A DNA stretch of 61,638 bases. Source: an uncultured bacterium. GTDB taxonomy: Bacteria > JAAXHH01. The stretch lies in contig CAJXCW010000002.1 in the NCBI GenBank assembly GCA_913051705.1, forward strand, positions 1 through 61,638. Reading direction: 5' to 3'. Of the stretch, positions 6,012 to 27,103 are shown in pieces. Made by a program: the position numbers and the translations under genes. Each line of letters opens with the position of its first letter. Position 1 is the stretch's first letter. The notes beneath the pieces were generated by a model. The model worked only from the letters and a program-made list of their open reading frames with translations. It was not told the origin of the DNA and did not search any database.

Positions 6012-6500
6012 CTACCTCAAGTTTTCTCGCAAAACTTGTGCCAACTCTTTAATCAGCGTTGTCCTGTTTGCAGTGGAAACTGCACGGCCGTGGATAGAGA
6101 TATCGGGATACTTTCGGGCTAAGCGACGCAATTCTACAACCGTCAGGGGCTCGAGATCCTCTATGGTATATGCCGGTGCTTCTTTTTCATCGCTATAAGA
6201 AGAGGACGTAGACGGATGATTTTTATTTTGTGCAGTGTAGTCAAAAATAGTACTCACCTCGTCATGTGGACGAGGAATAACATGCTGAGCCACTAATTCA
6301 CCTACCTGTTCGGCGGCCGCTGCACCTGCATCTACGGCCGCTTGTACAGCGGCCACATCACCGGTTATTGTAACCGTTACAAGAGCCGCATCTACACGTT
6401 CTGTTCCGAGTAAATGGACCTCCGCCGTCTTTACCGCAGCATCGGCAGCGGTAATCGCCCCTACTAATCCTCTGGTTTCAATCATACCCACTGCTGTCAT
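6012..6500 (-). CDS. BMC-H shell protein with C-terminal extension
   Basis: [22 protein letters not shown]...[10 protein letters not shown]...HVIPRPH, followed by a linker and a helical tail [13 protein letters not shown]...LIKEL. Confidence 0.9.
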
Positions 6501-6513
6501 ATTTTATTCGACC

Positions 6514-6789
6514 TCAAGTCTGGGAAACGGGTAGAATCGCTTCTACATCAGAATGCGGCCTCGCAATGACATGGACGGAAATAACTTCACCAATTCGTTC
6601 GGCGGCCGCCGCGCCGGCATCTGTCGCCGCTTTAACAGCCCCTACATCACCCCGAACCAATACCGTCACATACCCACCGCCGATTTTTTCTTTACCGACC
6701 AGAGTTACTTTTGCAGCTTTTACCATCGCATCTGCTGCTTCTACAGAAGCCACCAATCCTCTGGTTTCAATCATACCTAACGCTTCCAA
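6514..6789 (-). CDS. BMC-H shell protein (EutM/PduA-like)
   Basis: [24 protein letters not shown]...[13 protein letters not shown]...HVIARPH. GAGGAGG RBS before a TTG start. Confidence 0.95.
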
Positions 6790-6844
6790 GATAACACCTC
6801 CTCATAACCCATAATATAAGTTAATTGCCCAAAGACGGCCAAAC

Positions 6845-6873
6845 AGTATATCGGGTACGTATATATTTGTCAA
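6845..6873 (-). promoter_or_regulatory. Near-consensus sigma-70 promoter for BMC-H/BMC-H/rpoD
   Basis: TTGACA-aatatatacgtacccga (17 nt)-TATACT on the minus strand. Confidence 0.7.
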
Positions 6874-6918
6874 CTATAATCTGATGCCGCCCATTCGGAT
6901 ACTCTCTGGTTCAGATCA

Positions 6919-8175
6919 TTACGACAGGGCGACCAAAGTGCCCGAATGATCGAAAGGTAAAGGCGATAAAGACGCCCTTACCTCAAGGTCATCCCGATCG
7001 GCTATTTCGTCCATAAGCGTTTCGGAAATAGCCACTTCACCGAGATGAAGCGTATTTTTTATCCTGACCGCCCGTCCGGATTCCGGGGCTTTCATCCCGA
7101 TCGTTGAGAATGCGGCTTCTATCACTTCGCGATCCGTATCAAAATAGACGGGGATACGCGCTTTTTGCGGTCCCATGCCGGTAATCGAATTAATATAGGT
7201 ATAGTGGTGGTTGATTTGATTAACCAACCGCTGGGTGGTAAAATCTGCCAGACCAACGCCGACGGCATTTCCTTCGCTTTCCGGAGTCAGGCCTCGTACG
7301 ACGATTCTTAATATTTGAGGTGAGACAGGTTCCGGTTCGAAATCCTGCATCCTGCGACCAATAATATTGGTATCCATACCCGTCCCGCTGATATTTTTAC
7401 CCATCTCATCTACAATAAGAACATCTATATCTTCAAACGGCAGCCGTGGCATAAGACGATTGGCTAATTGGAATAGTTCCCTTTCCTTTTGTTCCAGACC
7501 GTCTACCGGGACGCCTACAATATGTGCGGTCTGATCATAGGCATTCTCGATGATAGCCAGGCCGAATGCAACAGGTGTTTTTTTCATTACCACAGCAGAT
7601 ACCGTAGTAATCATATGTTCGAAGCCGTATTCGAAAACCGAGCCATGATAAAAACTGGCCCCTTTCTGCTTCCCCAGTCCTATCGCCATCATTTTCATCA
7701 ATCCACTGCCTATATCCCCCGCAAAATCCGTATGTGGTTTGATGCGGTTCACAATAACGATATGGTCTGCACTAAGGGCATTGCGATCGATATATACAGG
7801 TAACCCATCGCCCGTCTCACCGATGAGCTCCGGTTCGATATCAGACCGAATAGGGCAACTCATGGTCGCCTCGGAAATACCGTAGTTATTGAGGACACGT
7901 AACTGGCCGTCGGATGTGGCTCCGCCATGACTGCCCATAGCCGGGACAATAAATGGCTTCATGCCTTCATTATGCAAGGCGTCTACCGTATGTTTTATGA
8001 TAGTCGCTATATGCATGATGCCGCGGCTGCCTGCCGCCACAGCGACGGAAGCGCCCGAAGACATCCCGGCTTGATCAATCATCCGGGCGACTTCCGCTTC
8101 CGTTGTGATGCCGATATCTTCTACTACAGGCGCCTCGAATCGTTGATGAACCTGCACAAATTTTGGTAGTTTCAT
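6919..8175 (-). CDS. Lactate racemase (LarA/DUF2088)-superfamily protein
   Basis: GSRGI, PAMGSHGGAT, NRIKPHTDF, SGLMKMMAIGLGK, GKNISGTGMD motifs. Confidence 0.7.
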   Translation of the reverse strand: MKLPKFVQVHQRFEAPVVEDIGITTEAEVARMIDQAGMSSGASVAVAAGSRGIMHIATIIKHTVDALHNEGMKPFIVPAMGSHGGATSDGQLRVLNNYGISEATMSCPIRSDIEPELIGETGDGLPVYIDRNALSADHIVIVNRIKPHTDFAGDIGSGLMKMMAIGLGKQKGASFYHGSVFEYGFEHMITTVSAVVMKKTPVAFGLAIIENAYDQTAHIVGVPVDGLEQKERELFQLANRLMPRLPFEDIDVLIVDEMGKNISGTGMDTNIIGRRMQDFEPEPVSPQILRIVVRGLTPESEGNAVGVGLADFTTQRLVNQINHHYTYINSITGMGPQKARIPVYFDTDREVIEAAFSTIGMKAPESGRAVRIKNTLHLGEVAISETLMDEIADRDDLEVRASLSPLPFDHSGTLVALS

Positions 8176-8190
8176 AACCACACCCCTGTT

Positions 8191-8224
8191 ATAGTAGGCG
8201 CACGGCGCGCCATGCGCCTACTAT
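8191..8224. repeat. GTAG-type REP-like palindrome
   Basis: atagtaggcgca-N10-tgcgcctactat, perfect 12-bp arms between two genes. Confidence 0.6.
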
Positions 8225-9594
8225 TAGATCCCGCCAATGAATCGGCAGTTATTCAAGATCCCTTTAGGATCAAATTTATTTTTAAGCATCCGCATGATCG
8301 GCAAATCATCGCGAACAGGCCCCCAGACCTCTACGCGACTTTTCAAGGCCGCCGGCGCATGCTCAACGACTAGGGAGCCACCGCTTTCTACTGCTGCCTG
8401 TTGAAGGTCATTGATCATGCCGGCCAGGATGTCTAAATGGGGCTCTTCGAACGGAACTTCCTGATAAAAAACAAAGGACATATGCCCACTGCTGAAGTGA
8501 GCAAGCATGCCACACCCGATGGATGATTTCTGACAACGGTTTTCTGCCAGTTGATACAGGTTTCCGATCTGCTCCGGGGTAACGCTCGCGCGGCAGGTGA
8601 TGCCGGGCATCATATCACTTGAGACCACCTGCCCGGTTGGGAAAGACCGAAGTAATTTGAGCGCAATCTGATACCGTTCGTCTTCCATATGGACAATCTG
8701 GCCAGCGCCCATCTCTTGAAAAAGTCTTTCGCATGCCTCTACCTGCCATTTGACGGTTTCTTCCTGTCCCATAATGCCCGCAATAATTGGAAAGCCTGCA
8801 TCGATTGAATTCCCTCCGACCTGCCGGGATAGAAGGGCTATCAGTACGGGATTGGCTAATTCAATAAAGGTCGGCATCACATCGGATTCGAGCAATTTAA
8901 ATGCCGTGTCCATTACCGTGTAAATAGAAGGCAAAAGACCGATAATAATATGACCGATTTCCGGAAGAGGTTGCAGCTTGAGCGTGATTTCCGCCATGAT
9001 GCCCAGGGTGCCTAAAGAACCGATGTACATCTTATTCAGATCATATCCGGCAACATTCTTTACGACTTTACCCCCTGATTTTACTATAGTGCCGTCTGCC
9101 TGAACTACGCGCAACCCGATTACGATGTCACGGGCCGTACCGAAGGTCATGCGCAACAGGCCACTGGCGTTCGTAGCAAGTATTCCGCCTAATGTACATG
9201 TTTCTCCATGCGGCGGATCGAGCGGCCAGTATTGACCTTGTGAACCTAAGTGCGATTGAAGGTCCGACAGACGAATACCGGCTTGAACGGTGATCGCTTG
9301 ATCTGCTGGCTCATATTCAAGGACCTGGTTCATTCTATCAAGTTGAACGATAATATCTGCTCTGGTCGGCGGTAAACCGATATCCATCTTGGTACCACTG
9401 CCCCACGGAATAATTCCGTAATCGTACTCTGAAGCCAGTTGAACCACGGCGGCAAGAGACGCTATGCTGTCAGGGGATACAACCACCTCAGGTGTTATAC
9501 CATCAATGGCATATTGAGCCAGAGTATCCTCTCCAGCAGGATTATAATCGGTGATAATCTCTTTAAGGCGCTTATGTAGCACTTCGCTTGGCAT
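8224..9594 (-). CDS. glcE: FAD-binding oxidoreductase, GlcE-like
   Basis: PWGSGTK, PLDPP, GGKVVKNVAGYDL, GSLGTLG, KFDPKGILN; lies next to a glcD-like gene. Confidence 0.75.
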   Translation of the reverse strand: MPSEVLHKRLKEIITDYNPAGEDTLAQYAIDGITPEVVVSPDSIASLAAVVQLASEYDYGIIPWGSGTKMDIGLPPTRADIIVQLDRMNQVLEYEPADQAITVQAGIRLSDLQSHLGSQGQYWPLDPPHGETCTLGGILATNASGLLRMTFGTARDIVIGLRVVQADGTIVKSGGKVVKNVAGYDLNKMYIGSLGTLGIMAEITLKLQPLPEIGHIIIGLLPSIYTVMDTAFKLLESDVMPTFIELANPVLIALLSRQVGGNSIDAGFPIIAGIMGQEETVKWQVEACERLFQEMGAGQIVHMEDERYQIALKLLRSFPTGQVVSSDMMPGITCRASVTPEQIGNLYQLAENRCQKSSIGCGMLAHFSSGHMSFVFYQEVPFEEPHLDILAGMINDLQQAAVESGGSLVVEHAPAALKSRVEVWGPVRDDLPIMRMLKNKFDPKGILNNCRFIGGI

Positions 9595-9621
9595 GCAGAA
9601 TTCCTTATTTAATTTGCTCTT

Positions 9622-11064
9622 CTACAACGCCGCCTGACGCTTCGTTCGCTTGAGTTCTATCGTACCGCAACCGATGCACGAACGATTCGTGGGAAACATT
9701 TTTCCCGGATTGCTGATATTGGATGGATCGAAGACCTGCTTAACGCTTTCCATGGCCGCGATGTCCTGCTTGGAAAAAATAAGCGGCATGAGGTCCACCT
9801 TTTCATAACCGATACCATGTTCCCCCGTGATAGATCCCCCTAAATCGACACAGGCCCTCAAAATTTCATCCCCGGCAGCGACCGTCCTTGCCGCTTGTTC
9901 AGAATCTCTGTCATCATAGGCGATGCAGGGATGGATATTGCCATCCCCGGCATGGAAGACATTGCCGATCAACAGATCATATTTCTTCCCGGTTTTTTCG
10001 ATAATACGCATAATGTCGGGTAGTTTGGTTCGAGGAACCACGCCATCCTGTACATAATAACTAGGGCTTAAACGGCCCATGGCGCCGAATGCCCGTTTAC
10101 GACTCATCCAGAGCAGAGCTCGTTCTTTATCATCTTTAGCGGATTGAATATCCCGGGCGTTATTTTCCTGGCATACTTCTATAATACGCTCGGCCTGCGT
10201 CTCAAGGCCGGCTTCCAGACCTTCAATTTCAATAATTAAAACCGCCTCAGCATCCAGGGGAAAACCGAAATGAAAAGCTTCCTCCACAGCGCCTATAACG
10301 ACTTTATCCAACATCTCAAGAGCATCCGGCACAATACCTCGGGCGATAATACCTGCGACCGTATTTGACGCATCCTCAATCCGATCGAAGACCGCCAGGA
10401 AGGTCTTCCATGTTTGAGGCGATCTGGTGAGTTTGACCCAGGCACGCGTCACGATACCGAGCATACCTTCCGAGCCGATCAGGATGCCACGGAGGTCGTA
10501 GCCGGGAGAATCGTACGTTTTGCCGCCGAACCAGATGATCTGGCCGTCGGGGAGCACCACTTCCACGCCGAGCGTATGGTTGGTCGTTACGCCGGATTTC
10601 AGCGTATGCGGCCCGCCCGAATTCTCCGCGATATTACCGCCAATCGTACAGGCATACTGACTGGACGGATCCGGAACAAAATAGTATCCCTTATCGGCGA
10701 CTGCTTTCGATAAATGTAAATTGACCACGCCGGCTTCTACCAGCGCCCGCTGATTTTTTATATCGATCTCAACAATATGGTTCATCCTGGTCAGCGTAAT
10801 CATCACACCGCCTTCCGGAGATAAAGTCCCTCCACTGAGGCCGGTACCGGCACCCCGGGCCACAAAGGGGATATTCTCCTGGTGCAGTAGCTTTACCACG
10901 GCAGATACCTGTTCTACCGAAGTGGGTAAGACAACCGCATGCGGCGTGTTTCTATCTATAGTCAACCCATCACATTCATAGACAATCAATTCATCAGGCG
11001 CATCCACCACGCCGTCACGTCCCATAATATCGACCAGAGCTGAAATAAGCTGTTCTTTATTCAT
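9622..11064 (-). CDS. glcD: FAD-linked 2-hydroxyacid oxidase, GlcD (glycolate/D-lactate dehydrogenase)
   Basis: ARGAGTGLSGG, PDPSSQYACTIGGN, GSEGMLG, HAGDGNIHP, GEHGIG, NPGK. Start at MNKEQ (11064). Confidence 0.85.
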   Translation of the reverse strand: MNKEQLISALVDIMGRDGVVDAPDELIVYECDGLTIDRNTPHAVVLPTSVEQVSAVVKLLHQENIPFVARGAGTGLSGGTLSPEGGVMITLTRMNHIVEIDIKNQRALVEAGVVNLHLSKAVADKGYYFVPDPSSQYACTIGGNIAENSGGPHTLKSGVTTNHTLGVEVVLPDGQIIWFGGKTYDSPGYDLRGILIGSEGMLGIVTRAWVKLTRSPQTWKTFLAVFDRIEDASNTVAGIIARGIVPDALEMLDKVVIGAVEEAFHFGFPLDAEAVLIIEIEGLEAGLETQAERIIEVCQENNARDIQSAKDDKERALLWMSRKRAFGAMGRLSPSYYVQDGVVPRTKLPDIMRIIEKTGKKYDLLIGNVFHAGDGNIHPCIAYDDRDSEQAARTVAAGDEILRACVDLGGSITGEHGIGYEKVDLMPLIFSKQDIAAMESVKQVFDPSNISNPGKMFPTNRSCIGCGTIELKRTKRQAAL

Positions 11065-11090
11065 GTCTTTCCCTAAGCTCTTCCTCATTC

Positions 11091-11651
11091 TTACCGGCTC
11101 GACGATCTGATCAACTCCATAAATTCCATCCGGGTACGCCGATCCTTTCTGAAGCCGCCGAGCATCGCGCTGGTTTTGGTTTTGGAGTGCTGCTTTTCGA
11201 CACCGCGCATCATCATACACAAATGTTCCGCTTCCATGACGACAGCCACACCCCGGGGGTTGAGTTGTTCCTGAATGGTTTGCGCGATCTGATTGGTTAG
11301 TCGTTCCTGCAATTGAAGTCTGCGGGCAAACACATCAACAATACGCGGAATTTTCCCCAGGCCGATAATTTTTCCATCAGGAATATAAGCCACATGACAC
11401 TGACCGAAGAACGGTAATAAATGGTGCTCACACAAGGAATAAAATTCAATGTTCTGCACCGATACCATCTCATCATAGTCCTCTTCATAGATAGCGCCAT
11501 TTATAATGGTTTCAATATCCTGGCTGTAGCCCTGGGTGAGAAATCGCAATGACTGGGCTACACGAAGCGGTGTCCTCTGCAGCCCTTCACGATCCGGATC
11601 TTCACCGACTTCTGTAAGCAGGGATTTGGTCAAACCAACAATAGAATCCAT
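11091..11651 (-). CDS. folE: GTP cyclohydrolase I
   Basis: [41 protein letters not shown]. Confidence 0.95.
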
Positions 11652-11655
11652 ATAT

Positions 11656-12480
11656 TTATAACTCCTGCTCTCCATAATATTCGAAGGAATTGTTAGAGGT
11701 TTCGACCAACCGGATTTTATAGAGCGTCGGTTGGGTGAAATGGGGCGACAGACGGTTCCAGATTACACGCGCGAATTCCTCAGATGTAGGATTGACTTCT
11801 CTGAATTCTTCTAAATCCATATTGAGATTTTTATGGTCATACCGGTCGACAACCTCCCGTTGAATGAGCTCGTCCAGCAAACCCATATCAATGACCATGC
11901 CCGTCCTTTTATCGAGGGGACCACAAACCGTTACCTCCAACTCGTAGTTGTGACCATGTCCGTTCGGATTATTGCACTTACCAAAAATGCGGGCGTTTTC
12001 CTCATCACTTAATACCTGACTATGCAGCCTGTGAGCGGCGTTGAATTCAACTCGTCTGGTGACGTAGATCATCGTGTCGTCTCCAATATACTCTATTGAA
12101 CGTGTACGGCTTTCATAAATATTCAAACGAGCCAGTTCGCATTGCGTTAACATGGGGACCAGGCGATGCCATAAAGCCCGAGTCAAGCGTTCTGTCGTCG
12201 GCTCTTGCCCTTGAAAAAGGTCACCATTATCATTTAAATGAGTCATGTCCAACGGCGTGACCACCGTTCTCAGCAGCTGTTTAACATCTGCCAGATTGAC
12301 TACAATACCTGTCGAAGAATTAATTGATCCCTTGACCGTGGCTTCACAAATATAATCATGCCCATGTCCTGTGCCAACAGCACAATGGCCATATACATAT
12401 CGATTCTGATCGTCGGACCAATCCGGGTTCCGACAGACGTGTGCTGCTGAAAATATGATTTTCCGGGTTAAGAACATCAT
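11656..12480 (-). CDS. Tandem two-domain 6-pyruvoyl-tetrahydropterin synthase (PTPS-II type motifs)
   Basis: Two repeats: FSAAH...[11 protein letters not shown]...PTTE and FNAAHRL...[11 protein letters not shown]...PTSE. Confidence 0.85.
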
Positions 12481-12491
12481 GGTCAGCCTGT

Positions 12492-12534
12492 AGGAACAGG
12501 GATTAAATAAGTGTGCTGTTTTATCCCTGTTCCT
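12492..12534. terminator. Inverted repeat between the ABC permease and PTPS genes
   Basis: aggaacagggat ... atccctgttcct, 12-bp arms. Confidence 0.45.
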
Positions 12535-13460
12535 TAATCCCTTCTATATGCTTGCGCCATGGCGGCCGGATACCGGGCATGTCCTGCAAAAAATATTAAC
12601 ACCAACAACGTCAATACATAGGGCAGCATGAGAAAAAGCTGATACGGTATAGACGTACCGATCGCCTGGAATTGAAACTGAACAGCATTGGCTATGCCAA
12701 AAAGTAACGCGGCGCCCATGGCACCAACCGGATGCCAGCGACCGATGATGACGATGGCCAGAACGATAAAACCTCGCCCGGCAGACATTCCTTCAATAAA
12801 GGTATTGGCGTGTGCCAGAGAAAGATAACTCCCGGCGGCGCCTGTCAAAATACCACATGCCAGAATACAACCATGCCGTACCCGATTCACAGGTATGCCT
12901 GCTGCATCAGCGGCCATAGGTGACTCTCCGACGGCACGGATAGACAGGCCCAGGGTAGTATAAAACAACAACCAGACCGCCACAGGTACCAGAAGAAAAC
13001 CAAGGTATACCGGCGCCGTATGTCCTGACAGGATATTCCCGATAAGAGGGATCTGATCTATTAAGGGGATATCGATCGGTTCAAATGTCTGCACCGTCAG
13101 GGCGGTTCCGGTTATACCGAAAATCTGCCGATAGAATACGCCTGTAAGTCCCAATGCCAACAGATTGAGCGCCGCTCCCATCACCACCTGGTCACTACCC
13201 AGATAGACCGTCACCAAACTGAACAAACCGGCAAGTAGAAACCCGGCGCCCATACCGACCAGGAGCCCTATCCAGGGACTGCCGGTAAAGTAAGAACCTA
13301 ACATCCCGCCCAGGGCGCCGGTCAGCATCATACCCTCCAGCCCAATATTAATAACTCCGGATCGCTCAGCAAAGATTTCACCGATCGATGTCATGACCAG
13401 CGGCGTGGCCATTTTGATCCCGGAGCGGATAAGGCTGATGATCAGGATAGCAAGGTCCAT
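12534..13460 (-). CDS. ABC transporter permease (nucleoside/BMP-associated)
   Basis: GEIFAERSGVINIGLEG, GLSIRAVGE, GRGFIVLA; highly hydrophobic. Confidence 0.9.
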   Translation of the reverse strand: MDLAILIISLIRSGIKMATPLVMTSIGEIFAERSGVINIGLEGMMLTGALGGMLGSYFTGSPWIGLLVGMGAGFLLAGLFSLVTVYLGSDQVVMGAALNLLALGLTGVFYRQIFGITGTALTVQTFEPIDIPLIDQIPLIGNILSGHTAPVYLGFLLVPVAVWLLFYTTLGLSIRAVGESPMAADAAGIPVNRVRHGCILACGILTGAAGSYLSLAHANTFIEGMSAGRGFIVLAIVIIGRWHPVGAMGAALLFGIANAVQFQFQAIGTSIPYQLFLMLPYVLTLLVLIFFAGHARYPAAMAQAYRRD

Positions 13461-13521
13461 ATATTACCAACTTGTCAGGTAACTACAATGTAACTCAAAT
13501 TTACGCATCATGCATCATATT

Positions 13522-18323: not shown

Positions 18324-18420
18324 AACAGACCTTCCATAGTTGCATAGTCCCTGCAATCCAGCTTCTCGGACACCCTCTCAGGGAACCAAATGGAATCATA
18401 ATCTATTTCAAAAGTCACAA

Positions 18421-18450
18421 ATAATACCGTCCAGACCCCTCTCATGTCAA
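18421..18450 (-). promoter_or_regulatory. Sigma-70-type promoter for nrnA and the ABC genes
   Basis: TTGACA-18 nt-TATTAT on the minus strand. Confidence 0.5.
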
Positions 18451-18536
18451 GTCTTATTTTGTGGGTAACTTGATGAGGTTGTTCGGAATAAGTGATTGAT
18501 AAATCTGAAAAAAACCACATCGCCTATGAGTTGGAA

Positions 18537-18565
18537 TTGACAGACGGATCATGAAGGCCTATTGT
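18537..18565 (+). promoter_or_regulatory. Sigma-70-type promoter for the DUF2064/selA-like pair
   Basis: TTGACA-17 nt-TATTGT. Confidence 0.55.
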
Positions 18566-18606
18566 AATGCGTATTTTAAATCTTTTTTCTCCAGGAGTCC
18601 TCATAC

Positions 18607-19320
18607 TTGAACGCCCTTGTGATATTCATGAAAGCGCCTCGTTCCGGTGCCGTAAAAACGCGGATGATACCCTGGTTGTCGCCCGAAGAGGCCGCAGATC
18701 TATATTGTGCGTTGATACAAGATACAGCCGCAATAGCAAGTCAGGTAGCCGGCGCGACAACACACATCGCCTTTACCCCCGCAGACGCTCAGCCTGTACT
18801 CCGGGAGTTGATAGATGATGAGACGATACAATGGTTTCTGCAACAGGGCGATGATTTGGGGGATCGCCTTAAGCTTGCGTTTCAGAAGATATTCCACGAG
18901 GGGTGGGAAAGGGCGGTTATCATCGGCAGCGATAGTCCTTTATTGCCTCCCGGTTATATCGAACAGGCGTTCGACGCCCTTAATTCCGTAGATGTCGTAT
19001 TGGGGCCGGCGACAGATGGCGGATACTATCTTATCGGGCTTGCACGGAGCGCGCGTGTACTTTCGTGTTACCACCATATATTTGATCATATTACCTGGAG
19101 TACCGAAAAGGTATATGAACAAACGGTACAGGCCATCCGGCAGTACGACTTATCCCAATCAGACCTGAATACCTGGGGAGACGTAGATCAAAAGGCAGAT
19201 CTCATCCGTATTGCGGTTGAAATACAGATCCTGAGAGAACAGGGTGAAAAGATATTGGGTTCGAATACAGAGCAAATACTTAAGGTGTTACAAACAAAAT
19301 TAAAATTGGTGATTGAGTGA
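18607..19320 (+). CDS. DUF2064 / TIGR04282-family GT-A-fold transferase
   Basis: FMKAPRSGAVKTRM, QQGDDLGDRL, IGSDSP, LGPATDGGYYLIG, ITWST, DVD. Confidence 0.85.
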   Translation: MNALVIFMKAPRSGAVKTRMIPWLSPEEAADLYCALIQDTAAIASQVAGATTHIAFTPADAQPVLRELIDDETIQWFLQQGDDLGDRLKLAFQKIFHEGWERAVIIGSDSPLLPPGYIEQAFDALNSVDVVLGPATDGGYYLIGLARSARVLSCYHHIFDHITWSTEKVYEQTVQAIRQYDLSQSDLNTWGDVDQKADLIRIAVEIQILREQGEKILGSNTEQILKVLQTKLKLVIE

Positions 19321-19418
19321 TTGAGAGGCTGTCTCTCAATTTGATTTGCTCATCTGCTCATTTGTTTTATTCAATCACCTATCACTCAATCACCAATCAC
19401 CAATCACCAATCACCAAT
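19305..19418. repeat. Short tandem repeats (CAATCAC x4) with an inverted arm
   Basis: attggtgattgagtgat (19305-) pairs with atcactcaatcaccaat (19381-). CAATCAC x4 at 19387-19414 runs into the next ATG. Confidence 0.75.
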
Positions 19419-20772
19419 GGACCTTCAATCCCGCCTGGCCGCCTTACCCGCTGTGCATATCCTGCAACGCCATCCAGCTATTCATACGATGGCGTCGTCG
19501 TATCCGAGCGCACAAATCGTTGCGGCTATCCGGGAGATTCTACAGGAAGCCAGAGAAACCCTTCGGAACCAGACAAATGAGCCGGTATCTCCATTACAAT
19601 TTGAAGCGGATACGTTGGTTGAACGGGTGATAGATCGGTTAGAATGCGAGCGGATGCCCGGCTATCGGCCCGTTATCAATGGTTCGGGGATCCTGTTTCA
19701 TCCCGATGCCGGAGAGGCCCCAATAGGAGAACCGGTCCGCTCTACTATGGCGCATATGCTGATATCGACTATCTGCGATGACCTGGATCAAGTAGAAAAG
19801 GAAATATGTACCCTGACCGGTGCGGAAGATGCGGTCATCGTAACTTCCGCGCAGGCGGCCTTTTTCCTTATGATGAAAGTCTTATGTGACGGGAAGGATG
19901 TCGTTGTTGCACGCAGCCATTTAGGGATGAGAGAAAACGGTTTTCGTCCTATACAAGCCATGGCCCATGCCGGCGCCCGTGTTATTGAAATCGGTGCGAC
20001 AAATAAAACACATCCGGAGGACTATCAGGCCGCCATCGGAGAGCAAACGGGTGCGATAGGCGTTATACGACCTACAACCTATGCGTTACGAGGTTTTACC
20101 CAGGACGTTGCTCTACAGGAACTGGTTCAGCTTGGGGCTGCGGTGGGTGTGCCTGTCGTTTATGATGCCGGTTATACCACACTGAAACCTTTGCCTGAAG
20201 GCTTATGGCAGCCGTCCATTTCCCTCACCGAGGCGGTCCGTTACGGCGTGTCGGTAACCATTGTTCGAGCGGATGGACTCATAGGTGGCCCTGCCTGCGG
20301 TCTGATTATCGGATGTAATGAAGTACTGGATAAAGTCCGACGCCATGCTTTAATGCCCATGCTGACGCCCAGTCCGTTGTTGCGTGCAGGACTGAAGGTC
20401 AGGATGTCGGATCTGAAAGGGGCGACAGATGATTTCGAAGGCCATCCCGCAGCCTATATGCTGACCGTTTCCCTGGAAACCATCCGACAACGAGCCGATA
20501 CACTCTGTGCAGGTCTTAAAGCTGGCGAATCAGTAGAGATTATTGAGCGTCCTGCTTTTCTAACACCATATAAATTACCTGCTGAATCGTTGCCGAGTTG
20601 TGCCCTGTCTTTCCGACCGCCACACGACGCTCCGGAGACGGTTCTGGCACGATGGCGTAACCGGTCGCCTGCTTTGCTGGGCATACATGATGGAGATCGG
20701 ATTCTGCTTGATATGAGGGGTATCAAAAATGAGCAGATAGAGATGGTCGCCCAAATCGTAAATGATGGTTAA
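19417..20772 (+). CDS. SelA-like (Sec synthase family) protein, degenerate active site
   Basis: RPVINGSG, EIGATNKTH, RGFT, LDMR align with SelA, but the SGDKLLGGP motif reads RADGLIGGP. Confidence 0.75.
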   Translation: MDLQSRLAALPAVHILQRHPAIHTMASSYPSAQIVAAIREILQEARETLRNQTNEPVSPLQFEADTLVERVIDRLECERMPGYRPVINGSGILFHPDAGEAPIGEPVRSTMAHMLISTICDDLDQVEKEICTLTGAEDAVIVTSAQAAFFLMMKVLCDGKDVVVARSHLGMRENGFRPIQAMAHAGARVIEIGATNKTHPEDYQAAIGEQTGAIGVIRPTTYALRGFTQDVALQELVQLGAAVGVPVVYDAGYTTLKPLPEGLWQPSISLTEAVRYGVSVTIVRADGLIGGPACGLIIGCNEVLDKVRRHALMPMLTPSPLLRAGLKVRMSDLKGATDDFEGHPAAYMLTVSLETIRQRADTLCAGLKAGESVEIIERPAFLTPYKLPAESLPSCALSFRPPHDAPETVLARWRNRSPALLGIHDGDRILLDMRGIKNEQIEMVAQIVNDG

Positions 20773-20813
20773 GATTTTAAGTGTATTTTATTTTTCATTC
20801 AGATCGAAATCTC

Positions 20814-20842
20814 TTGTGCAAATATACTATCTTCAGTATATT
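20814..20842 (+). promoter_or_regulatory. Promoter of the core BMC locus with an overlapping palindrome
   Basis: TTGTGC-17 nt-TATATT; AATATACT-N6-AGTATATT inverted repeat at 20821-20842. Confidence 0.5.
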
Positions 20843-20960
20843 AGGGTCTTGTATTTCTTCAGAAATCTGTACTTTGCCAGCGCGATTGCATGGCATTTTT
20901 CGTAATAATATCGTATATCACTCTCTGGACGGTTGTCCAATTCTGTGGGGATGTGTCTTT

Positions 20961-21791
20961 ATGAATTTGCAGCAGGCCAAAGCGGATATTATCCATGTCG
21001 GCAAACGTATGTATGACCGGGGATACGTGGCCTCGAACGACGGAAACATCAGTGTCCGCCTGTCCGAGGATCGTCTTCTGGTTACGATAACCGGCGTGAG
21101 CAAAGGGTTTTTGACCTCCGAGCAACTGGTCGTTATCGATTATGACGGCAATCTGGTGTCGGGACGCAACAAACCGTCATCGGAAATAAAAATGCATCTG
21201 ATGGTATATCAGGAACGGCCGGATATACATGCGGTAGCCCACGCCCATCCGCCGACCGCCACGGGCTTTTCTGTAGCGGGCATCCCTTTGACGGAATGTC
21301 TGCTGCCCGAGGTGATTGTTGCGCTCGGTTCGATTCCTATTATCGAATACGGAACGCCCGGAGGGATGGAACTGGTAGAGCCTATTCGTAAAAATGTTCA
21401 TGATTATGATGCCTTCTTACTTGAGAACCATGGCGCCTTGACTATCGGCCCTAATGTGATTAATGCCTATCACAAAATGGAAACGATGGAACATTTTGCC
21501 AAGATCTATCTGGTCGCCCGGATGCTTGGCAATGTGAATACGATCGGGGATGAGGATGTGGGTAAATTACTCAATCTCAGGGAAAGATTTGGTGTAACGA
21601 CCCAGGCCGTATGCCAGCTCGATTTACAGGAGAAGAAGGCTCAACCATCTCCGGTACAACCGAGTGCATCAAATTCAACCGGTAACGTTTCGCAGGAGGA
21701 ACTGGTTCAGCGTATTACGCGTGAGGTCGTAAGCCGGCTAAGCGGGACCGACAGTGAGGACAGTCAGGCGCGCATTATTCCGGTGAAATGA
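20961..21791 (+). CDS. Class II aldolase (FucA-like) with C-terminal encapsulation peptide
   Basis: NDGNISVR, PSSE, AHAHPP, LENHG. Low-complexity linker then amphipathic QEELVQRITREVVSRL. Confidence 0.9.
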   Translation: MNLQQAKADIIHVGKRMYDRGYVASNDGNISVRLSEDRLLVTITGVSKGFLTSEQLVVIDYDGNLVSGRNKPSSEIKMHLMVYQERPDIHAVAHAHPPTATGFSVAGIPLTECLLPEVIVALGSIPIIEYGTPGGMELVEPIRKNVHDYDAFLLENHGALTIGPNVINAYHKMETMEHFAKIYLVARMLGNVNTIGDEDVGKLLNLRERFGVTTQAVCQLDLQEKKAQPSPVQPSASNSTGNVSQEELVQRITREVVSRLSGTDSEDSQARIIPVK

Positions 21792-21798
21792 TCTGAAC

Positions 21799-23001
21799 AT
21801 GAACATCCTGATTGCTAACATCGGTAGTACATCGTTCAAATTTCAGCTCTTTGACAGTGCATCCCTTCAAGAACTGGCCCGAGGGCGACTGGAACGCATC
21901 GGCAGTGAAACCGCCCCGGTTCAATTCCATGTGGTAGGCAAGGAAGAGGTCGAGCAATCGGTTGCGTTGCCCGATTTCGGTTCAGCCATCCTTCATAGTA
22001 TACAGTTATTGACAGACCCGGATATCGGCGTGATTCACCATCTGTCTGAGATCGCTGCCGTAGGATTCAAGCCGGTCCATGCCCTTCATATCACTGGATG
22101 CCGGTTGTTTACAGACGATATTCTGGACGTGATGGAAGAGGCTGTGCCCCTCGCTCCAGCTCATAACCCGCCGTATATTGCAGCGGTGCGGCTGTATCGG
22201 GAATTATTGCCGGGTCTTCCTCTATACGGACTGTTCGAGCCGACATTTCATCAAACGATGCCGGATTATGCTACCATGTACGGCATCCCTTACGATTGGA
22301 TAGAGCGGTACGGTTTGCGTCGCTATGGCTTTCACGGAGCGTCTCACCAGCACATAGCAGAACGGACGCCGGTGTTCCTGGGATGTCCGTCCGAATCGCT
22401 GAAAATAGTGTCCTGCCATTTAGGTGGCAGCTCATCAATTTGCGCGATCGACGGAGGTAAATCAATCGATACCAGCATGGGCTTGACCCCGCAATCCGGC
22501 TTGATGCAATCCACTCGAACCGGTGATTTGGATCCATTTGCTGTTATGGACATGCTGGACCGGGAACAGATGACCACAGATGAAATGCGGACGGTGCTAT
22601 GTAAACAGAGCGGCCTGAAAGGGCTTTCCGGTATTGACAGTGGGGATATGCGGGATATTCTGGATGCTCAAAAAGAGGGTAATGAGCGCGCGGCACTGGC
22701 GGTAGATGCTTATGTATATGATATAAAAAAATACATTGGCGCCTATGCAGCAGCGATGAACGGTCTGGATGTCATCGTCTTTACCGGAGGAATCGGCGAG
22801 CGAAGCGTTGAGATCCGCGCCAGGGTTTGTGAAGGGCTGACTTTTCTGGGGATCATCCTTGACCCTGCCCGGAATAAGCGAAAAGAGAGCGAAATGATTA
22901 TATCATCGGATGAGGCGAAGACCATCGCAGCGGTTATCATAGCCAACGAAGAGCGAATCATCGTTCGCGAAGTCGTGAATGTCATAGAAAAAATGACCTG
23001 A
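21799..23001 (+). CDS. ackA: Acetate/acyl kinase (BMC-associated)
   Basis: NIGSTSFKF, APAHNP, YGFHGASH, CHLGG, TRTGDLDP, GGIGE, NEE. Confidence 0.92.
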   Translation: MNILIANIGSTSFKFQLFDSASLQELARGRLERIGSETAPVQFHVVGKEEVEQSVALPDFGSAILHSIQLLTDPDIGVIHHLSEIAAVGFKPVHALHITGCRLFTDDILDVMEEAVPLAPAHNPPYIAAVRLYRELLPGLPLYGLFEPTFHQTMPDYATMYGIPYDWIERYGLRRYGFHGASHQHIAERTPVFLGCPSESLKIVSCHLGGSSSICAIDGGKSIDTSMGLTPQSGLMQSTRTGDLDPFAVMDMLDREQMTTDEMRTVLCKQSGLKGLSGIDSGDMRDILDAQKEGNERAALAVDAYVYDIKKYIGAYAAAMNGLDVIVFTGGIGERSVEIRARVCEGLTFLGIILDPARNKRKESEMIISSDEAKTIAAVIIANEERIIVREVVNVIEKMT

Positions 23002-23087
23002 TACAAAATTTTAACGCCTATGGGAATGACAGGCGAGTTTTCACAGTTTATACTGTCCAAACCTTAGCAAAGTATAATAACAAACCA

Positions 23088-23810
23088 ATGAATTATCGCG
23101 ACAGACCATGTTCCATATGTGAAGATTGCCGGTTATGTGAAGCGGTGACGGCTCCATCTGATGAAGAGCGGATCGTGTCTGTGGTTCGAAATACGGTTTT
23201 TCGGGTATTGGATCAGCAGGCGATAACACCTTCCGGGTTTGAATTGACCGTCGGGGTTTCCGCGCGTCATTTACATATAACAGAGGAAGATCTGGCCGTG
23301 ATATACGGTCAGGGCCATTCGTTGACGTCGATGCGTGATCTGGCCGGTCCGGGAGAATTTGCTGCCGAAGAAACCGTCACGCTGGTCGGACCTAATATGC
23401 GTGCTATTCAGGGGATACGTATTCTGGGCCCCTGCAGATCTCAGACACAGGTCGAACTTGCACCGACAGATGGCGTCTTCCTCGGTATGGCTTTACCCAT
23501 GAGAGCCTCCGGCGATGTGGCTGGAACGGCTGCCGCGACGATTATCGGACCTGGGGGTTCCCTGTATTTGAAAGAGGGGGCTATCCGCGCAGACCGCCAT
23601 ATTCATATCTCGCCGGAAGAAGCCGCCCGATACGGCGTCTCTGATGGACAACATATCAAGGTGGAGGTGGCCGGTCCGGCAGGATTAACTTTTAATCAGG
23701 TCCGTATACGATTCAGTGAGAAATTTTCACCGCCGGCTATGCATATTGATACAGACGATGGCAACGCGGCAAGCGTGCGCTGCGGCGATACGGTAAGGGC
23801 CTTATTGTAA
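23088..23810 (+). CDS. pduL: PduL-type phosphate acyltransferase with Cys-rich N-terminus and encapsulation peptide
   Basis: VSARHLHI, RILGPCR..TQVE, DRHIHIS, MHIDTDDGNA. N-terminal CSICEDCRLC and EERIVSVVRNTVFRVL. Confidence 0.9.
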   Translation: MNYRDRPCSICEDCRLCEAVTAPSDEERIVSVVRNTVFRVLDQQAITPSGFELTVGVSARHLHITEEDLAVIYGQGHSLTSMRDLAGPGEFAAEETVTLVGPNMRAIQGIRILGPCRSQTQVELAPTDGVFLGMALPMRASGDVAGTAAATIIGPGGSLYLKEGAIRADRHIHISPEEAARYGVSDGQHIKVEVAGPAGLTFNQVRIRFSEKFSPPAMHIDTDDGNAASVRCGDTVRALL

Positions 23811-23916
23811 CCTGTTTGAAATAATACGGTTGCTTTTGCTGGCTTTTTTAATACATTCATTACTTTCTGCCCTGGCTGGACAGGCTGAAGGGGCATCTCG
23901 TTAGAAAGGAATAAGC

Positions 23917-24183
23917 ATGGACGCATTGGGTATGATAGAAACCAGAGGGCTGGTCGCTTTGATCGAAGCTGCTGATGCGATGGCAAAAGCAGCTGAGGTG
24001 AAGTTGATCAAGCACGAAAAAATCGGTGCCGGGTATGTCACCATTATGTGCCGGGGCGATGTAGCGGCCGTTAAGGCGGCCATCGATGCCGGGCAGGCCG
24101 CCGCCGAACGCATCGGCGAAGTCATTTCCACACACGTGATCCCACGTCCTCATTCTGATGTGGACGATGTCCTGTTGAAGTAA
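23917..24183 (+). CDS. BMC-H shell protein
   Basis: [25 protein letters not shown]...GDVAAVKAA...HVIPRPH; RBS AAGGA. Confidence 0.95.
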
Positions 24184-24277
24184 AAACGGCCAGGCAATGG
24201 AAGTCACCTTTGGTGCCTTCGAGCCCTTCGGGGTTTGCCCATTTGTAATTTGCTCATTTCCATTCCGTGGAGGTATC

Positions 24278-24589
24278 GTGGAACTCGGTCGGATCTCCGG
24301 TACGATCGTAGCTACCCAGAAGAACGAACGGTTGTCCGGGTTCAAGCTGCTTGTCGTGGATCTAATGAAAATGGACGGTGTAAAGACCGGCACAAATTTG
24401 GTCGCCCTGGATACCGTAGGCGCCGGCTCGGGAGAAATAGTGATCATCGTACGAGGCAGTTCTGCGCGTCAGGCTGAAGGCATGGCGGCGATACCAGTTG
24501 ATGCGACGATCATTGCTATTGTGGATTCGATTGAAATGGAAGGAAAGATCCGCTACCGGAAATCAGATGATTCCTGGCGTGACGGTTAA
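24278..24589 (+). CDS. BMC-P vertex protein (EutN/CcmL)
   Basis: GRISGTIVATQK...VALDTVGAGSGE...GSSAR...PVDATIIAIVD; GGAGG before GTG 24278. Confidence 0.92.
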   Translation: MELGRISGTIVATQKNERLSGFKLLVVDLMKMDGVKTGTNLVALDTVGAGSGEIVIIVRGSSARQAEGMAAIPVDATIIAIVDSIEMEGKIRYRKSDDSWRDG

Positions 24590-24695
24590 TGAAAAGAACA
24601 GCAAAGCAAATTTCAAATAATTACTTTCGGAGATAGCTTGCGATATTTCTCGCAAGAGGTGACTCGGTAGTTTTACGGGAAATCTCCAATAGGGA

Positions 24696-26132
24696 GTGGT
24701 CGTGAATATTGACGAACGTCAGATCCAGGCTATTGTACAACAGGTCCTTGTTGAGTTGGGCGGACAGTCTGGAAATCAGAGAAGTCGTAGCGGTTCAGGC
24801 GGACAATATGGTCTGTTTACTCGAATCGATGATGCAATCCAGGCGGCTGAACACGCGTTTGTACAACTTCAGGACATATCGTTGGAAACGCGTGGGAAGA
24901 TGATCGATGCTATGCGTGAGGTCATCCTGGATAATGCCGATCTGCTGGCCAGGATGGGGGTGGAGGAGACAAAGCTTGGTGATGTCGGAGATAAGGTCAA
25001 CAAGCATATCGTCGCCGCTTCAAAAACACCTGGTCTGGAAGATATCAAACCCGAAGCGATCACCGGTGATCATGGACTGACGATTACAGAATTCGCGCCC
25101 TACGGGGTCATCGGCTCCATCACTCCGATGACCAATCCGTCTGAAACCATTATTAATAATGGACTTATTATGATCGCGGCCGGCAACGCGGTGGTATTCA
25201 ATGCGCATCCCAGTGCCAAAAAAGTCACAATGAAGGCGGTCGAGCTTATTAATCAAGCCATTGTGAAGGCAGGCGGTCCGGATAATCTATTGACGGGCGT
25301 CGTAGAGCCGACGCTTGAAACGGCGGGTGCGTTGATGAATGACCCGCGCGTCCGTGTTCTGGGGGTCACCGGTGGCCCCGGCGTTGTAAAAGCCGCCATG
25401 AGCAGTGGCAAAAAGGTGATCGCTGCCGGTCCAGGGAACCCGCCCGTGGTGGTCGACGAAACCGCGGATCTGGAAAAAGCGGCGCGGTCCATTGTAGATG
25501 GCGCTACGCTGGATAACAATATCTGCTGTATTTGTGAAAAGGAAATCATCGCCGTAGAATCCATTGTAGATGACCTCAAACGCCATATGAAGGCCTACAA
25601 AACGGTCGAACTGACAGGTACGCAGATTGAAGAAGTAACCAATCTGGTGTTTGATCAGTGGCGTGGGGTAGGATGTAAGGATGCGGTTCTCAATCGTCAT
25701 TTTGTCGGTAAATCGGCACTGGCTATTCTCAGTGAACTGGGCATACATGCCCCGGCTGATACACGAATGATTCTTGTAGAAACGCCGGCAGATCATCCGC
25801 TGGTGTGGAAAGAACAGATGATGCCTGTGATCCCGTTGGTACGCATGCCGAACGTAGATGCGGCGATTGACTTTGCAAAAGAGGTGGAACAGGGATGTTA
25901 TCATACGGCGGTGATGCACTCACGAAATGTAGAGAATTTGAGCCGTATGGCCCGATTGATAAACACCACCATTTTTGTAAAGAATGGGCCTTCTTATGCC
26001 GGGTTAGGTTTCGGCGGCGAGGGACCGACGGCTTGGACCCTGGCCAGTCCGACCGGCGAAGGACCCACCACACCACGCACCTTCACCCGGCCAAGACGAT
26101 GCGTCCTGGTAGATGCATTCCGTATCGTTTGA
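24696..26132 (+). CDS. eutE: CoA-acylating aldehyde dehydrogenase (EutE/PduP) with N-terminal encapsulation peptide
   Basis: TPMTNPSET, TGGPGVV, AGPGNPP, NNICCICEKE, HTAVMHS, PTGEG. N-terminal ERQIQAIVQQVLVEL. Confidence 0.92.
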   Translation: MVVNIDERQIQAIVQQVLVELGGQSGNQRSRSGSGGQYGLFTRIDDAIQAAEHAFVQLQDISLETRGKMIDAMREVILDNADLLARMGVEETKLGDVGDKVNKHIVAASKTPGLEDIKPEAITGDHGLTITEFAPYGVIGSITPMTNPSETIINNGLIMIAAGNAVVFNAHPSAKKVTMKAVELINQAIVKAGGPDNLLTGVVEPTLETAGALMNDPRVRVLGVTGGPGVVKAAMSSGKKVIAAGPGNPPVVVDETADLEKAARSIVDGATLDNNICCICEKEIIAVESIVDDLKRHMKAYKTVELTGTQIEEVTNLVFDQWRGVGCKDAVLNRHFVGKSALAILSELGIHAPADTRMILVETPADHPLVWKEQMMPVIPLVRMPNVDAAIDFAKEVEQGCYHTAVMHSRNVENLSRMARLINTTIFVKNGPSYAGLGFGGEGPTAWTLASPTGEGPTTPRTFTRPRRCVLVDAFRIV

Positions 26133-26154
26133 TCTGGTTCATTAGAGATACGAC

Positions 26155-26233
26155 TTCGTAGTTTCGTAGGTAGATGACTCCCTGCGGGGGCACATCGATT
26201 GCTTCGTAATTCGTAGTTTCGTCGCTCCGTAGT
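26155..26233. repeat. Degenerate TTCGTAGT tandem units inside the BMC operon
   Basis: ttcgtagt-ttcgtagg ... ttcgtaat-tcgtagt-ttcgtcgc-tccgtagt. Confidence 0.55.
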
Positions 26234-26248
26234 TTTTAAAGGACGCCT

Positions 26249-26548
26249 GTGGATCTGGAACGCCTGATTGCGCTTATCGTAAAAACAGTGGTCGAAGAAC
26301 TTGTGCGGCAGGACGTTATTCGCTTAGACCATACCGGGGTTACTCTTTCTCAGGGGCAGGGAAAGACGGTCTCCTCCACAGTGTCGAATCGATCACCCGG
26401 CCGGGTTGTGTCTGCTCAAATGATTCTGGATGCGGCTAAGACGGGTGTTACAACCTATGAGGCTCCTGCCCATGCGTTGATTACGCCGCTCGCTGCAGAG
26501 GTCGCCCGCGAAAAGGGGATCAAGATCATAAGTGCGGATACGGGGTAA
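26249..26548 (+). CDS. Small BMC-associated protein with N-terminal encapsulation peptide
   Basis: LERLIALIVKTVVEELV amphipathic helix; C-terminal LITPLAAEVAREKGIKI motif; sits between the AldDH and BMC-P genes. Confidence 0.75.
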   Translation: MDLERLIALIVKTVVEELVRQDVIRLDHTGVTLSQGQGKTVSSTVSNRSPGRVVSAQMILDAAKTGVTTYEAPAHALITPLAAEVAREKGIKIISADTG

Positions 26549-26552
26549 CCTG

Positions 26553-26831
26553 ATGCGATTAGGACGGATTATCGGTAAGATGTGGGCGACGGCCAAGGTG
26601 GAGAGCCTGAAAGGGATACGGTTTCATGTGATGCAGCCGCTGGATCACCATAGTAAACCGGAAGGGAAACCGATTGTTGCGATAGATGCCATAGGCGCCG
26701 GCGAAGGGGAAATGGTGTTCTGGGTCGGCGGCGGCGATGCGATCCTGGCGATACCTGACAGAACACTGCCCTCCGATGCATCCATTATAGGCATTGTGGA
26801 CCAGTTGAATACAGCGGAAAGCAATCTATGA
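26553..26831 (+). CDS. BMC-P vertex protein (EutN/CcmL)
   Basis: MRLGRIIGKMWATAK...VAIDAIGAGEGE...DASIIGIVD. Confidence 0.9.
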   Translation: MRLGRIIGKMWATAKVESLKGIRFHVMQPLDHHSKPEGKPIVAIDAIGAGEGEMVFWVGGGDAILAIPDRTLPSDASIIGIVDQLNTAESNL

Positions 26832-27103
26832 TTATCGGTCTTGTCGTGGGTAATGTCGTATCGACAGTTAAACATTCCTTGTATCGAGGCAAAAAAATTT
26901 TACTGGTTCAGCCCTACGGTTCCAGCCAGAAGCCGAAAGGGAATACGATGGTGGCCGTTGATACCGTAGGCGCTGGCATTGGAGAGATGGTGTTGGTCGC
27001 AGCAGAAGGAAGAGCCGCCAGTGAAATATTGGACGTCCCCCGTGGACCGGTCCGTTCAATCATCGTAGGTATTATAGATGCCATTCAGACAGATGAAGAG
27101 TAA
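26828..27103 (+). CDS. BMC-P vertex protein (EutN/CcmL)
   Basis: MIIGLVVGNVVSTVKH...VAVDTVGAGIGE...IVGIID. Confidence 0.9.
   Translation: MIIGLVVGNVVSTVKHSLYRGKKILLVQPYGSSQKPKGNTMVAVDTVGAGIGEMVLVAAEGRAASEILDVPRGPVRSIIVGIIDAIQTDEE

Follow-up and report, generated by a model that had tools for sequence, protein, structure and literature searches.

The PVM type is the described kind of bacterial microcompartment (BMC) that comes closest to the locus considered here. In the relevant passages of Axen 2014 (PMC4207490), the PVM layout comprises a PF00596 aldolase, an acetate kinase, a DeoR regulator and BMC-P genes in greater number than BMC-H genes, and a gene of the Ldh/Mdh pfam in the locus is presumed to act as NAD+ recycler. 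Matching passages of Sutter 2021 (PMC8217296) count 285 representatives of this type, and part of Youssef 2015 reports BMCs in Latescibacteria. A related set of genes is found in a 61,638-nucleotide stretch of DNA from an uncultured bacterium (contig CAJXCW010000002.1 of assembly GCA_913051705.1; the whole stretch is referred to as the window). It encodes an aldolase, its companion enzymes and shell proteins at two sites 14 kb apart, the smaller of which directly follows a putative 2-hydroxyacid module, glcD-glcE-larA. We read the two sites as a single, complete PVM-type aldolase metabolosome, supplied by a rhamnose pathway, and the module as an operon of independent function; the three statements taken jointly are given a probability of about 0.6. 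On this reading, an uncultivated marine lineage, whose nearest public metagenome-assembled genomes (MAGs) are labelled Latescibacterota, Gemmatimonadota and Zixibacteria, would possess a PVM-type rhamnose/fucose organelle.

The core locus occupies positions 20961-27103 of the plus strand. Its signature enzyme, a class II aldolase (20961-21791; PF00596, 1.2e-48) with a ~65-residue C-terminal linker plus proposed encapsulation peptide (EP), is followed by the acetate/acyl kinase AckA (21799-23001; PF00871, 4.4e-112), a PduL-type phosphotransacylase with an N-terminal EP (23088-23810; PF06130, 1.7e-64), a BMC-H protein (23917-24183; PF00936, 6.3e-30), a BMC-P protein (24197-24589; PF03319, 4.5e-28), a CoA-acylating aldehyde dehydrogenase (AldDH), also with an N-terminal EP (24696-26132; PF00171; NF011927, 653.5 bits against a cut-off of 403), an EP-tagged small protein of 99 amino acids (aa) that belongs to no Pfam family (26249-26548), and two further BMC-P proteins (26532-26831 and 26828-27103; PF03319, 1.2e-26 and 2.2e-26). 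The true start of the first BMC-P is probably internal, since its Pfam match begins only at residue 29. The satellite site, on the minus strand, consists of two BMC-H genes, one coding for 91 aa (6514-6789; PF00936, 8.7e-29) and the other for 162 aa, including a C-terminal tail of about 55 residues (6012-6500; PF00936, 2.7e-27). Pfam scans of the window genes, plus 20 of the 35 further open reading frames (ORFs) of at least 110 aa outside 3866-31411, located every gene where a preliminary description of the window had put it. In the whole assembly (405 contigs; completeness 97%, contamination 5.7%), three single-domain PF00936 proteins (BMC-H) and three full PF03319 proteins (BMC-P) were found, all of them in the window. 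No BMC-T was found in the whole genome, each of the three PF00936 matches being single-domain; what had been noted for the window thus holds genome-wide.

These parts were compared with BMC loci from two Verrucomicrobiia genomes and one Pirellulaceae genome, all reached through their LarA homologues. The two Verrucomicrobiia PVM loci (L150 and L154) read PduL-H-H-AckA-H-P-AldDH-P-P-aldolase next to a DeoR gene. The window holds the same list of parts: a class II aldolase tagged by an EP at its C-terminus, an acylating AldDH and a PduL that likewise carry EPs, AckA within the locus, a BMC-P triplet and, with the satellite pair completing the set, three BMC-H without BMC-T (L150 and L154 are likewise 3H+3P). 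The H-P-AldDH-P-P block is common to all three loci, and AldDH, PduL and AckA are 41-47% identical to the Verrucomicrobiia proteins. The differences are that two of the window's three BMC-H genes have moved 14 kb away, whereas the canonical PVM locus contains them; that the remaining gene order is rearranged; that one BMC-H carries a helix-extended-helix tail; and that a small domain found at the N-terminus of the Verrucomicrobiia PVM aldolase is, in the window, a separate EP-tagged protein. The assignment to a PVM-type aldolase metabolosome made in the preliminary description is therefore borne out, and the agreement with an already described type is largely gene for gene: the match is nearly part for part, in a rearranged order.

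The four proposed EPs (in the aldolase, PduL, AldDH and the 99-aa protein) have in common a 15-residue pattern, E[RE]x[IV]xx[IV]xxxV[LFVI]xxL. Among 20107 stop-to-stop ORFs of at least 80 aa in the whole assembly, only these four proteins match it; in the aldolase the motif lies in the C-terminal tail (about 21696-21740, plus strand). AckA has no EP, and this strict pattern found none on GlcD, GlcE or LarA. A looser version, applied to 6090 ORFs of at least 150 aa, gave three more terminal matches, in proteins of 151-252 aa encoded on contigs C125, C138 and C221. As for the 99-aa protein, jackhmmer found orthologues in all three relatives for which the region was available (G001, G025 and G026). 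A Pfam scan relaxed to E values up to 1 gave nothing meaningful, and TIGR02536 (eut_hyp) is matched weakly, at the C-terminal end of the model. The protein also matches the aldolase ORF of L150 (7396-8508; jackhmmer E 7e-17), which codes for 352 aa as compared to 276 aa for the window aldolase; as judged from the ORF sequence rather than from alignment coordinates, the likeness falls within the N-terminal ~45 residues. The 99-aa protein is thus a stand-alone version of the domain that Verrucomicrobiia PVM aldolases have fused to their N-terminus. This small BMC-associated domain occurs both fused, in the L150 aldolase, and free, in the 99-aa protein; the N-terminal domain of a PVM aldolase can exist as a separate EP-tagged protein.

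The history of the locus was followed in 28 genomes of the order. Five of them carry the BMC (the host genome, G000, and G001, G025, G026 and G027, of which G025 is only 83% complete); the other 23 form a sister genus in which no BMC domain was found in any genome, many of these genomes being closed chromosomes of 3.7-4.0 Mb. The five BMC-bearing genomes are kin, and any co-distribution seen among them represents one or a few events and not a statistic. In 21 of the 22 sister-genus loci the neighbourhood reads AIRS-HU-aldolase-SelA-like-DUF2064/DHH-PTPS-FolE-GlcD-GlcE-LarA-sigma (L076 lacks the aldolase). Gone from these loci (L058-L081), relative to window positions 18607-28487, are AckA, PduL, AldDH, the 99-aa protein, the six shell genes and an ABC transporter. 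In all 21 sister-genus aldolases the chain stops just past the catalytic domain; the linker and EP, together ~65 residues, are missing, which supports a targeting role for the tail of the window enzyme. The sister genus can be regarded as a natural loss experiment, in which the shell, AldDH, PduL, AckA and the rhamnose genes were dropped and the signature aldolase was kept in de-targeted form.

The genome encodes the rhamnose isomerase RhaA on contig C160 (668 bits) and, on contig C135, a rhamnulokinase, RhaB, whose score of 536.5 bits exceeds the cut-off of 527.95. RhaA is present in four of the five BMC-bearing genomes (G025 being without a match) and RhaB-like proteins in all five; both are missing from all 23 genomes of the BMC-less sister genus. 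Co-distribution of rhamnose genes with the compartment is a further trait in common with the PVM type. Because the genome has no PF00596 match, and hence no class II aldolase, besides the window enzyme, and because RhaA and RhaB are distributed like the BMC, conversion of rhamnose to lactaldehyde appears to be the best-supported input to the organelle; use of L-fucose is possible. L-Rhamnose would be isomerised by RhaA and phosphorylated by RhaB, perhaps alongside an L-fucose route. Within the shell, the EP-tagged aldolase would cleave the ketose-1-phosphate to dihydroxyacetone phosphate (DHAP) and L-lactaldehyde, which the EP-tagged AldDH would convert to lactyl-CoA and the EP-tagged PduL to lactyl-phosphate; AckA would then release lactate with formation of ATP. 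The shell would be assembled from three BMC-H and three BMC-P proteins without BMC-T, two of the BMC-H being supplied by the satellite site under a promoter of its own.

The evidence for such a promoter comes from the 130-bp gap that separates larA from the BMC-H pair. At 6845-6873 (minus strand) this gap contains a sigma-70-type promoter-like element, TTGACA-17-TATACT, in which 11 of 12 positions agree with the consensus; no sigma-70-like match in the interval 5000-12600 is better. In the five BMC-bearing genomes the -35 sequence TTGACAA is invariant and the -10 sequence conserved (TTGACAA-17-TATAnT), and the gap outside the element does not align among them. Orthologues of the 91-aa BMC-H, 84-90% identical, occupy the same position in G001, G025, G026 and G027, and the distance from the satellite to the aldolase, 14.2 kb in the window, is 26 kb in G026. 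Shell genes located at satellite loci under separate regulation are also described for beta-carboxysomes (PMC5853843), and the split locus resembles them in this respect.

The module that precedes the satellite pair, likewise on the minus strand, comprises three genes. The first specifies a GlcD-family FAD-linked 2-hydroxyacid dehydrogenase (9622 to about 11061; FAD-oxidase_C, 2.3e-64; glcD model, 503.5 bits versus a cut-off of 567.9), the start of which is uncertain, the longest ORF reaching position 11220 and overlapping folE. The second codes for a GlcE-like FAD-linked oxidase subunit of 456 aa (8224-9594; FAD_binding_4 and FAD-oxidase_C; GlcE model, 153.9 bits versus 284). The third specifies a LarA homologue of NCBIfam group 22 (6919-8181; NF052515, 523 bits versus 400; Lar_N, PF09861, 30.1 bits versus 23.3). 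As in the GlcDEF glycolate oxidase and GlcD-type D-lactate dehydrogenases, two FAD_binding_4/FAD-oxidase_C proteins are adjacent, the first of them close to GlcD; unlike GlcDEF, the pair falls below the curated cut-offs, the second subunit is full-length and GlcD-like, and the operon has no GlcF. The earlier GlcD/GlcE calls therefore stand as far as membership of the GlcD family of FAD-linked oxidases is concerned, and not at the level of the NCBIfam glycolate-oxidase models. No CCG-domain gene lies in the window; CCG matches were found on contigs C159, C56, C18 and C294, the one on C159 being a GlcF-like double-CCG protein.

The LarA-like call is upheld by the NF052515 score together with two other findings. 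An alignment with LarA chain 9eia_A, in itself weak (phmmer E 0.72), matches the equivalents of His108, His174, Lys184 and His200; we take these residues to be the two catalytic histidines, the cofactor-tethering lysine and the nickel-ligand histidine. The genes that make the cofactor, nickel-pincer nucleotide (NPN), are all present above their cut-offs, with LarB at 302 bits (cut-off 175), LarC at 211.6 (90) and LarE at 329.7 (150). The Lar_N domain, the four aligned residues and LarB/LarC/LarE are traits of the LarA superfamily; by contrast, group 22 lies very far from the LarA proteins that have been characterised and has no assigned substrate in NCBIfam. Another likeness lies in the neighbourhood: in the matching passages of Desguin 2020 (PMC7583248), a COG0277 (GlcD-type) dehydrogenase is found near 5 of 25 groups of LarA homologues. 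Group-22 homologues in 55 loci of other phyla, 41-55% identical, have as neighbours GlcD-like genes (7), TRAP transporters (5), LUD-domain genes (3) and a GlcF-like gene, as well as 2-oxoacid:ferredoxin oxidoreductases (3), Fe-dependent alcohol dehydrogenases (Fe-ADH; 6) and aldehyde:ferredoxin oxidoreductases (4). In view of these GlcD-like neighbours and of the COG0277 association, the module taken alone can reasonably be read as a racemase/epimerase that supplies a D-specific FAD dehydrogenase. It would constitute an independent, cytosolic unit in which a nickel-pincer racemase/epimerase hands a 2-hydroxyacid to the dehydrogenase, and the context yields a hypothesis, open to assay, on a group of enzymes without assignment.

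The preliminary description had gone further and coupled the module to the organelle, a proposal that the comparisons did not support. The glcD-glcE-larA genes are intact in 23/23 BMC-less genomes, from which the BMC-H pair is cleanly absent, and alignment of LarA and GlcE with the BMC-less orthologues revealed no extra termini. Beyond the order, none of the 55 group-22 loci has a BMC-H gene within the fetched flanks, and 37 of the 55 genomes have no BMC domain (1/5 and 36/50 in two scans). Three PVM-bearing genomes of other phyla, G041, G043 and G044, have the LarA homologue and the BMC locus on different contigs; in G045 the LarA homologue is on the same chromosome as the BMC genes, more than 1 Mb away from them. 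Linkage of larA/glcDE to BMC genes is thus a property of the five BMC-bearing genomes and is found neither in the sister genus nor outside the order. Oxidation of L-lactate is, moreover, already covered by LutABC (contig C18) and an LldD-like FMN dehydrogenase (contig C5). Because the module is independent of BMCs in relatives, because the BMC-H pair has a promoter-like element of its own and because no BMC linkage is seen at a distance, we concluded that coupling is not supported and that the adjacency represents inherited synteny. Lactate leaving the organelle may pass through glcD-glcE-larA, the module not being dedicated to it. A tempting link between the organelle and a nickel-pincer racemase operon is thereby removed. 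In the matching passages of a paper that mentions both lactate racemase and bacterial microcompartments, the racemase is not connected to the BMC. One genome of the Desulfarculia (G061; L193-L195) has a GlcD-GlcE-GlcF-like-LarA group-22 cluster some 25 kb from a BMC locus. This case was set aside as a LarA-BMC link: the locus has AldDH and PduL and, by tblastn, no aldolase, and the distance is probably due to chance.

Several observations weigh against the joint reading of a split PVM organelle, a rhamnose pathway and an independent module. Compared with the layout in the passages of Axen 2014, the locus is without DeoR, as far as the scanned ORFs of the window go, whereas a DeoR gene adjoins the Verrucomicrobiia locus; it is also without an Ldh/Mdh-type gene, the sole Ldh_1_N match of the genome being on contig C77 (tblastn and a partial Pfam annotation showed no Ldh/Mdh gene in L150 either). 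With the Verrucomicrobiia PVM aldolase the window enzyme shares only 32% identity, and it scores below every NCBIfam equivalog cut-off (best OtnC, 139 bits, and FucA, 128 bits), and no fucose isomerase (FucI) was found in the genome. Furthermore, the aldolase must serve some purpose apart from rhamnose cleavage and independent of the BMC, since it is kept in 21 of 22 loci of a genus devoid of BMC, RhaA and RhaB. The promoter calls are consensus matches only. Lastly, the co-directional adjacency of larA and the BMC-H pair is kept in all five BMC-bearing genomes, and a single RNA-library contig, belonging to a divergent strain, spans the gap and connects the BMC-H genes with larA.

Persistent adjacency is what would be predicted if L-lactate left the shell, were racemised by the LarA homologue and, as D-lactate, were oxidised to pyruvate by GlcDE, the satellite pair and glcDE-larA forming one unit of an oxidation-only metabolosome. 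We consider this unlikely. The position of the BMC-H pair, directly downstream of larA in five genomes, can be explained otherwise, as these genomes are kin that share one ancestral arrangement and count as a single event; a separate conserved promoter-like element precedes the pair, and the module stands in 23 genomes without BMC, RhaA or RhaB. The key residues of the LarA homologue and the presence of LarB, LarC and LarE would suit a racemase, as would, for a racemase paired with a D-dehydrogenase, the GlcD/GlcF-like and LUD-domain (lactate-utilisation-type) genes found beside group 22 in other phyla. Yet group 22 is remote from the characterised lactate racemases (the phmmer E of 0.72 is against the PDB LarA), none of its 55 loci outside the order adjoins BMC-H, 37 of the genomes concerned lack BMCs altogether, and LutABC and the LldD-like enzyme leave L-lactate provided for. 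Also compatible with coupling are the lack of an alcohol dehydrogenase in the locus, and of an EP-tagged one by the EP pattern, and the retention of both the aldolase and glcDE-larA in the BMC-less genus.

A more elaborate version of the same idea assigns a role to the tail of the 162-aa BMC-H (6012-6179, minus strand). This tail is conserved in G001, G025, G026 and G027 and in the lone BMC-H of the Latescibacterota genome G045 (L142, 1264-1740). Taken in isolation it is predicted by AF2 to form a helix-extended-helix (pLDDT 86). Of the PDB shapes returned by Foldseek, those closest to it were the Rho N-terminal domain, with a TMq of 0.70, and SAP domains, with TMq values of 0.56-0.60; every E value was above 1. 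Since no match had E below 1, the modelled likeness to Rho-N and SAP would be purely geometric, without statistical support. No Pfam family, EutK_C (PF16365) included, matches the tail at E up to 1, and a fold search with the full-length protein returned only BMC-H structures. According to passages of PMC12058022, BMC-H proteins with C-terminal extensions of 40-70 residues, comparable to that of the window protein, are known in EutK, PduK and CmcE, and the EutK tail has a nucleic-acid-binding fold; unlike EutK, the tail considered here has no EutK_C match. In a BMC-H tree (30 rows, 82 columns) only 4 of 27 inner branches were supported, and the tree did not settle whether the satellite pair corresponds to the H-H pair of canonical PVM loci; its sole standout was the clade of tailed BMC-H. 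A tailed subfamily recurs in these phyla. One could imagine that, in the BMC-bearing lineages, the satellite unit has evolved as a dedicated way out of the organelle, in which the tailed BMC-H displays a SAP/HeH-like domain outside the shell and group-22 LarA together with GlcDE oxidises L-lactate, via D-lactate, to pyruvate. If true, this would be a PVM metabolosome running oxidatively, without a propanediol branch, but we hold it to be improbable.

An equally doubtful alternative, if anything slightly more so, concerns the substrate. The aldolase could be of the Ald2/DrdA-like kind that operates in the DHAP shunt, acting on 5-deoxyribulose-1-phosphate or methylthioribulose-1-phosphate, in which case the shell would confine mainly acetaldehyde or methylthioacetaldehyde instead of lactaldehyde. 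Such a role would account for the conservation of the enzyme (68-76% identity) in a genus that has neither RhaA, RhaB and FucI nor a BMC, and for the fact that its scores stay below the FucA and RhaD equivalog cut-offs. All 28 genomes of the order encode an MtnA-like IF-2B isomerase, and a DHAP-shunt role was therefore kept as a possibility. It is RhaA and RhaB, however, that the BMC tracks, MtnA being universal in the order, and the EP tail of the aldolase occurs only where BMC and rhamnose genes do; the parts list, too, fits the PVM type. As for the notion that the satellite BMC-H pair lies outside the shell of this organelle, as a remnant or as part of another structure, its distance of 14 kb, its own promoter-like element and the unusual tail of one member do little to recommend it, and it is very improbable given that the genome would be left with a single BMC-H where the examined PVM loci have three, that each of the five BMC-bearing genomes has conserved the two genes in intact form, that they were lost together with the core genes in 23/23 BMC-less genomes, and that RNA-library contigs cover them in 4/4 runs examined.

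How the split PVM organelle would recycle NAD+ can be approached through the dehydrogenases of the genome. The statement in the preliminary description that the window has no alcohol or lactate dehydrogenase was confirmed: no alcohol dehydrogenase is found in the locus or the window, the Fe-ADH matches of the genome being on contigs C43, C74, C152, C291 and C35, and the window has no Ldh/Mdh gene. Nor was an alcohol dehydrogenase seen in the two Verrucomicrobiia PVM loci by tblastn and partial Pfam annotation. The Fe-ADH on C43 is FucO-like; its score on the lactaldehyde-reductase model, 307 bits, falls short of the cut-off of 523, and BMC-less genomes also have orthologues of it. Among the Fe-ADH matches, those of the score class of C74 were seen only in BMC-bearing genomes (G000, G001, G026 and G027), and the C74 enzyme is a possible candidate for the missing reductive step. 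It was also observed that this protein (8243-9487 of C74; L181) has about 35 extra N-terminal residues; no EP motif was seen on the protein.

Turning to the surroundings of the two sites, the folE gene and a tandem-domain PTPS/QueD-like gene lie upstream of glcD (11091-12480, minus strand) and are co-directional with it; they are mentioned for context only. The PTPS/QueD-like, folE, glcD, glcE and larA genes (8224-12480) make up a tight co-directional string, whose order is kept across the order, the BMC-less genus included. Directly after the BMC-H pair is a sigma-70-family gene (5098-6003), and a response regulator is encoded at 1015-1629; the earlier remark that the window has no regulator is thus correct for DeoR, as far as the ORFs scanned are concerned, and not for regulators at large. 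The gap between the DHH gene and DUF2064 (18357-18606) contains divergent promoter-like matches, at 11 of 12 positions on the minus strand and 10 of 12 on the plus strand. On account of these strong matches, the core operon may start at DUF2064/SelA-like rather than at the aldolase. The absence of a glycyl-radical enzyme from the window was confirmed and extended, no PFL-like match being found in the genome. Among the window genes scanned there was no RuBisCO and no B12 diol dehydratase, no family-specific search having been made for either. At the edge of the 8.5-kb contig C240 (31-138; L183) lies a fourth EutN/BMC-P match, a fragment cut off by the contig end; it could be a further vertex gene, part of a second locus, or contamination, estimated at 5.7% for this assembly.

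The occurrence of the locus in sequencing runs was also considered. At least half of the sampled words of the core operon are found in 13 DNA-type runs from nine studies, one of which runs may be the source sample; 12 of the 13 are marine or seawater metagenomes, and the remaining one has a coded organism. Of the core-operon words, a fraction of 0.20-0.48 is present in six RNA-library runs, each from a different study. In the four RNA runs examined (four studies), contigs were found on the satellite BMC-H pair as well as on aldolase, AckA, PduL, BMC-H/P and AldDH, mostly with a likeness of 95-99% or more; DNA carry-over is possible in these libraries, and the contigs cannot rank genes. Their depth is patchy over glcDE-larA and the transporter genes, holes in coverage proving nothing. 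Just upstream of the BMC-H start, two contigs from different studies break off, one at 6793 and the other at 6816; the ends differ and were not counted as evidence. The names of many sister-genus MAGs suggest a sponge or coral source.

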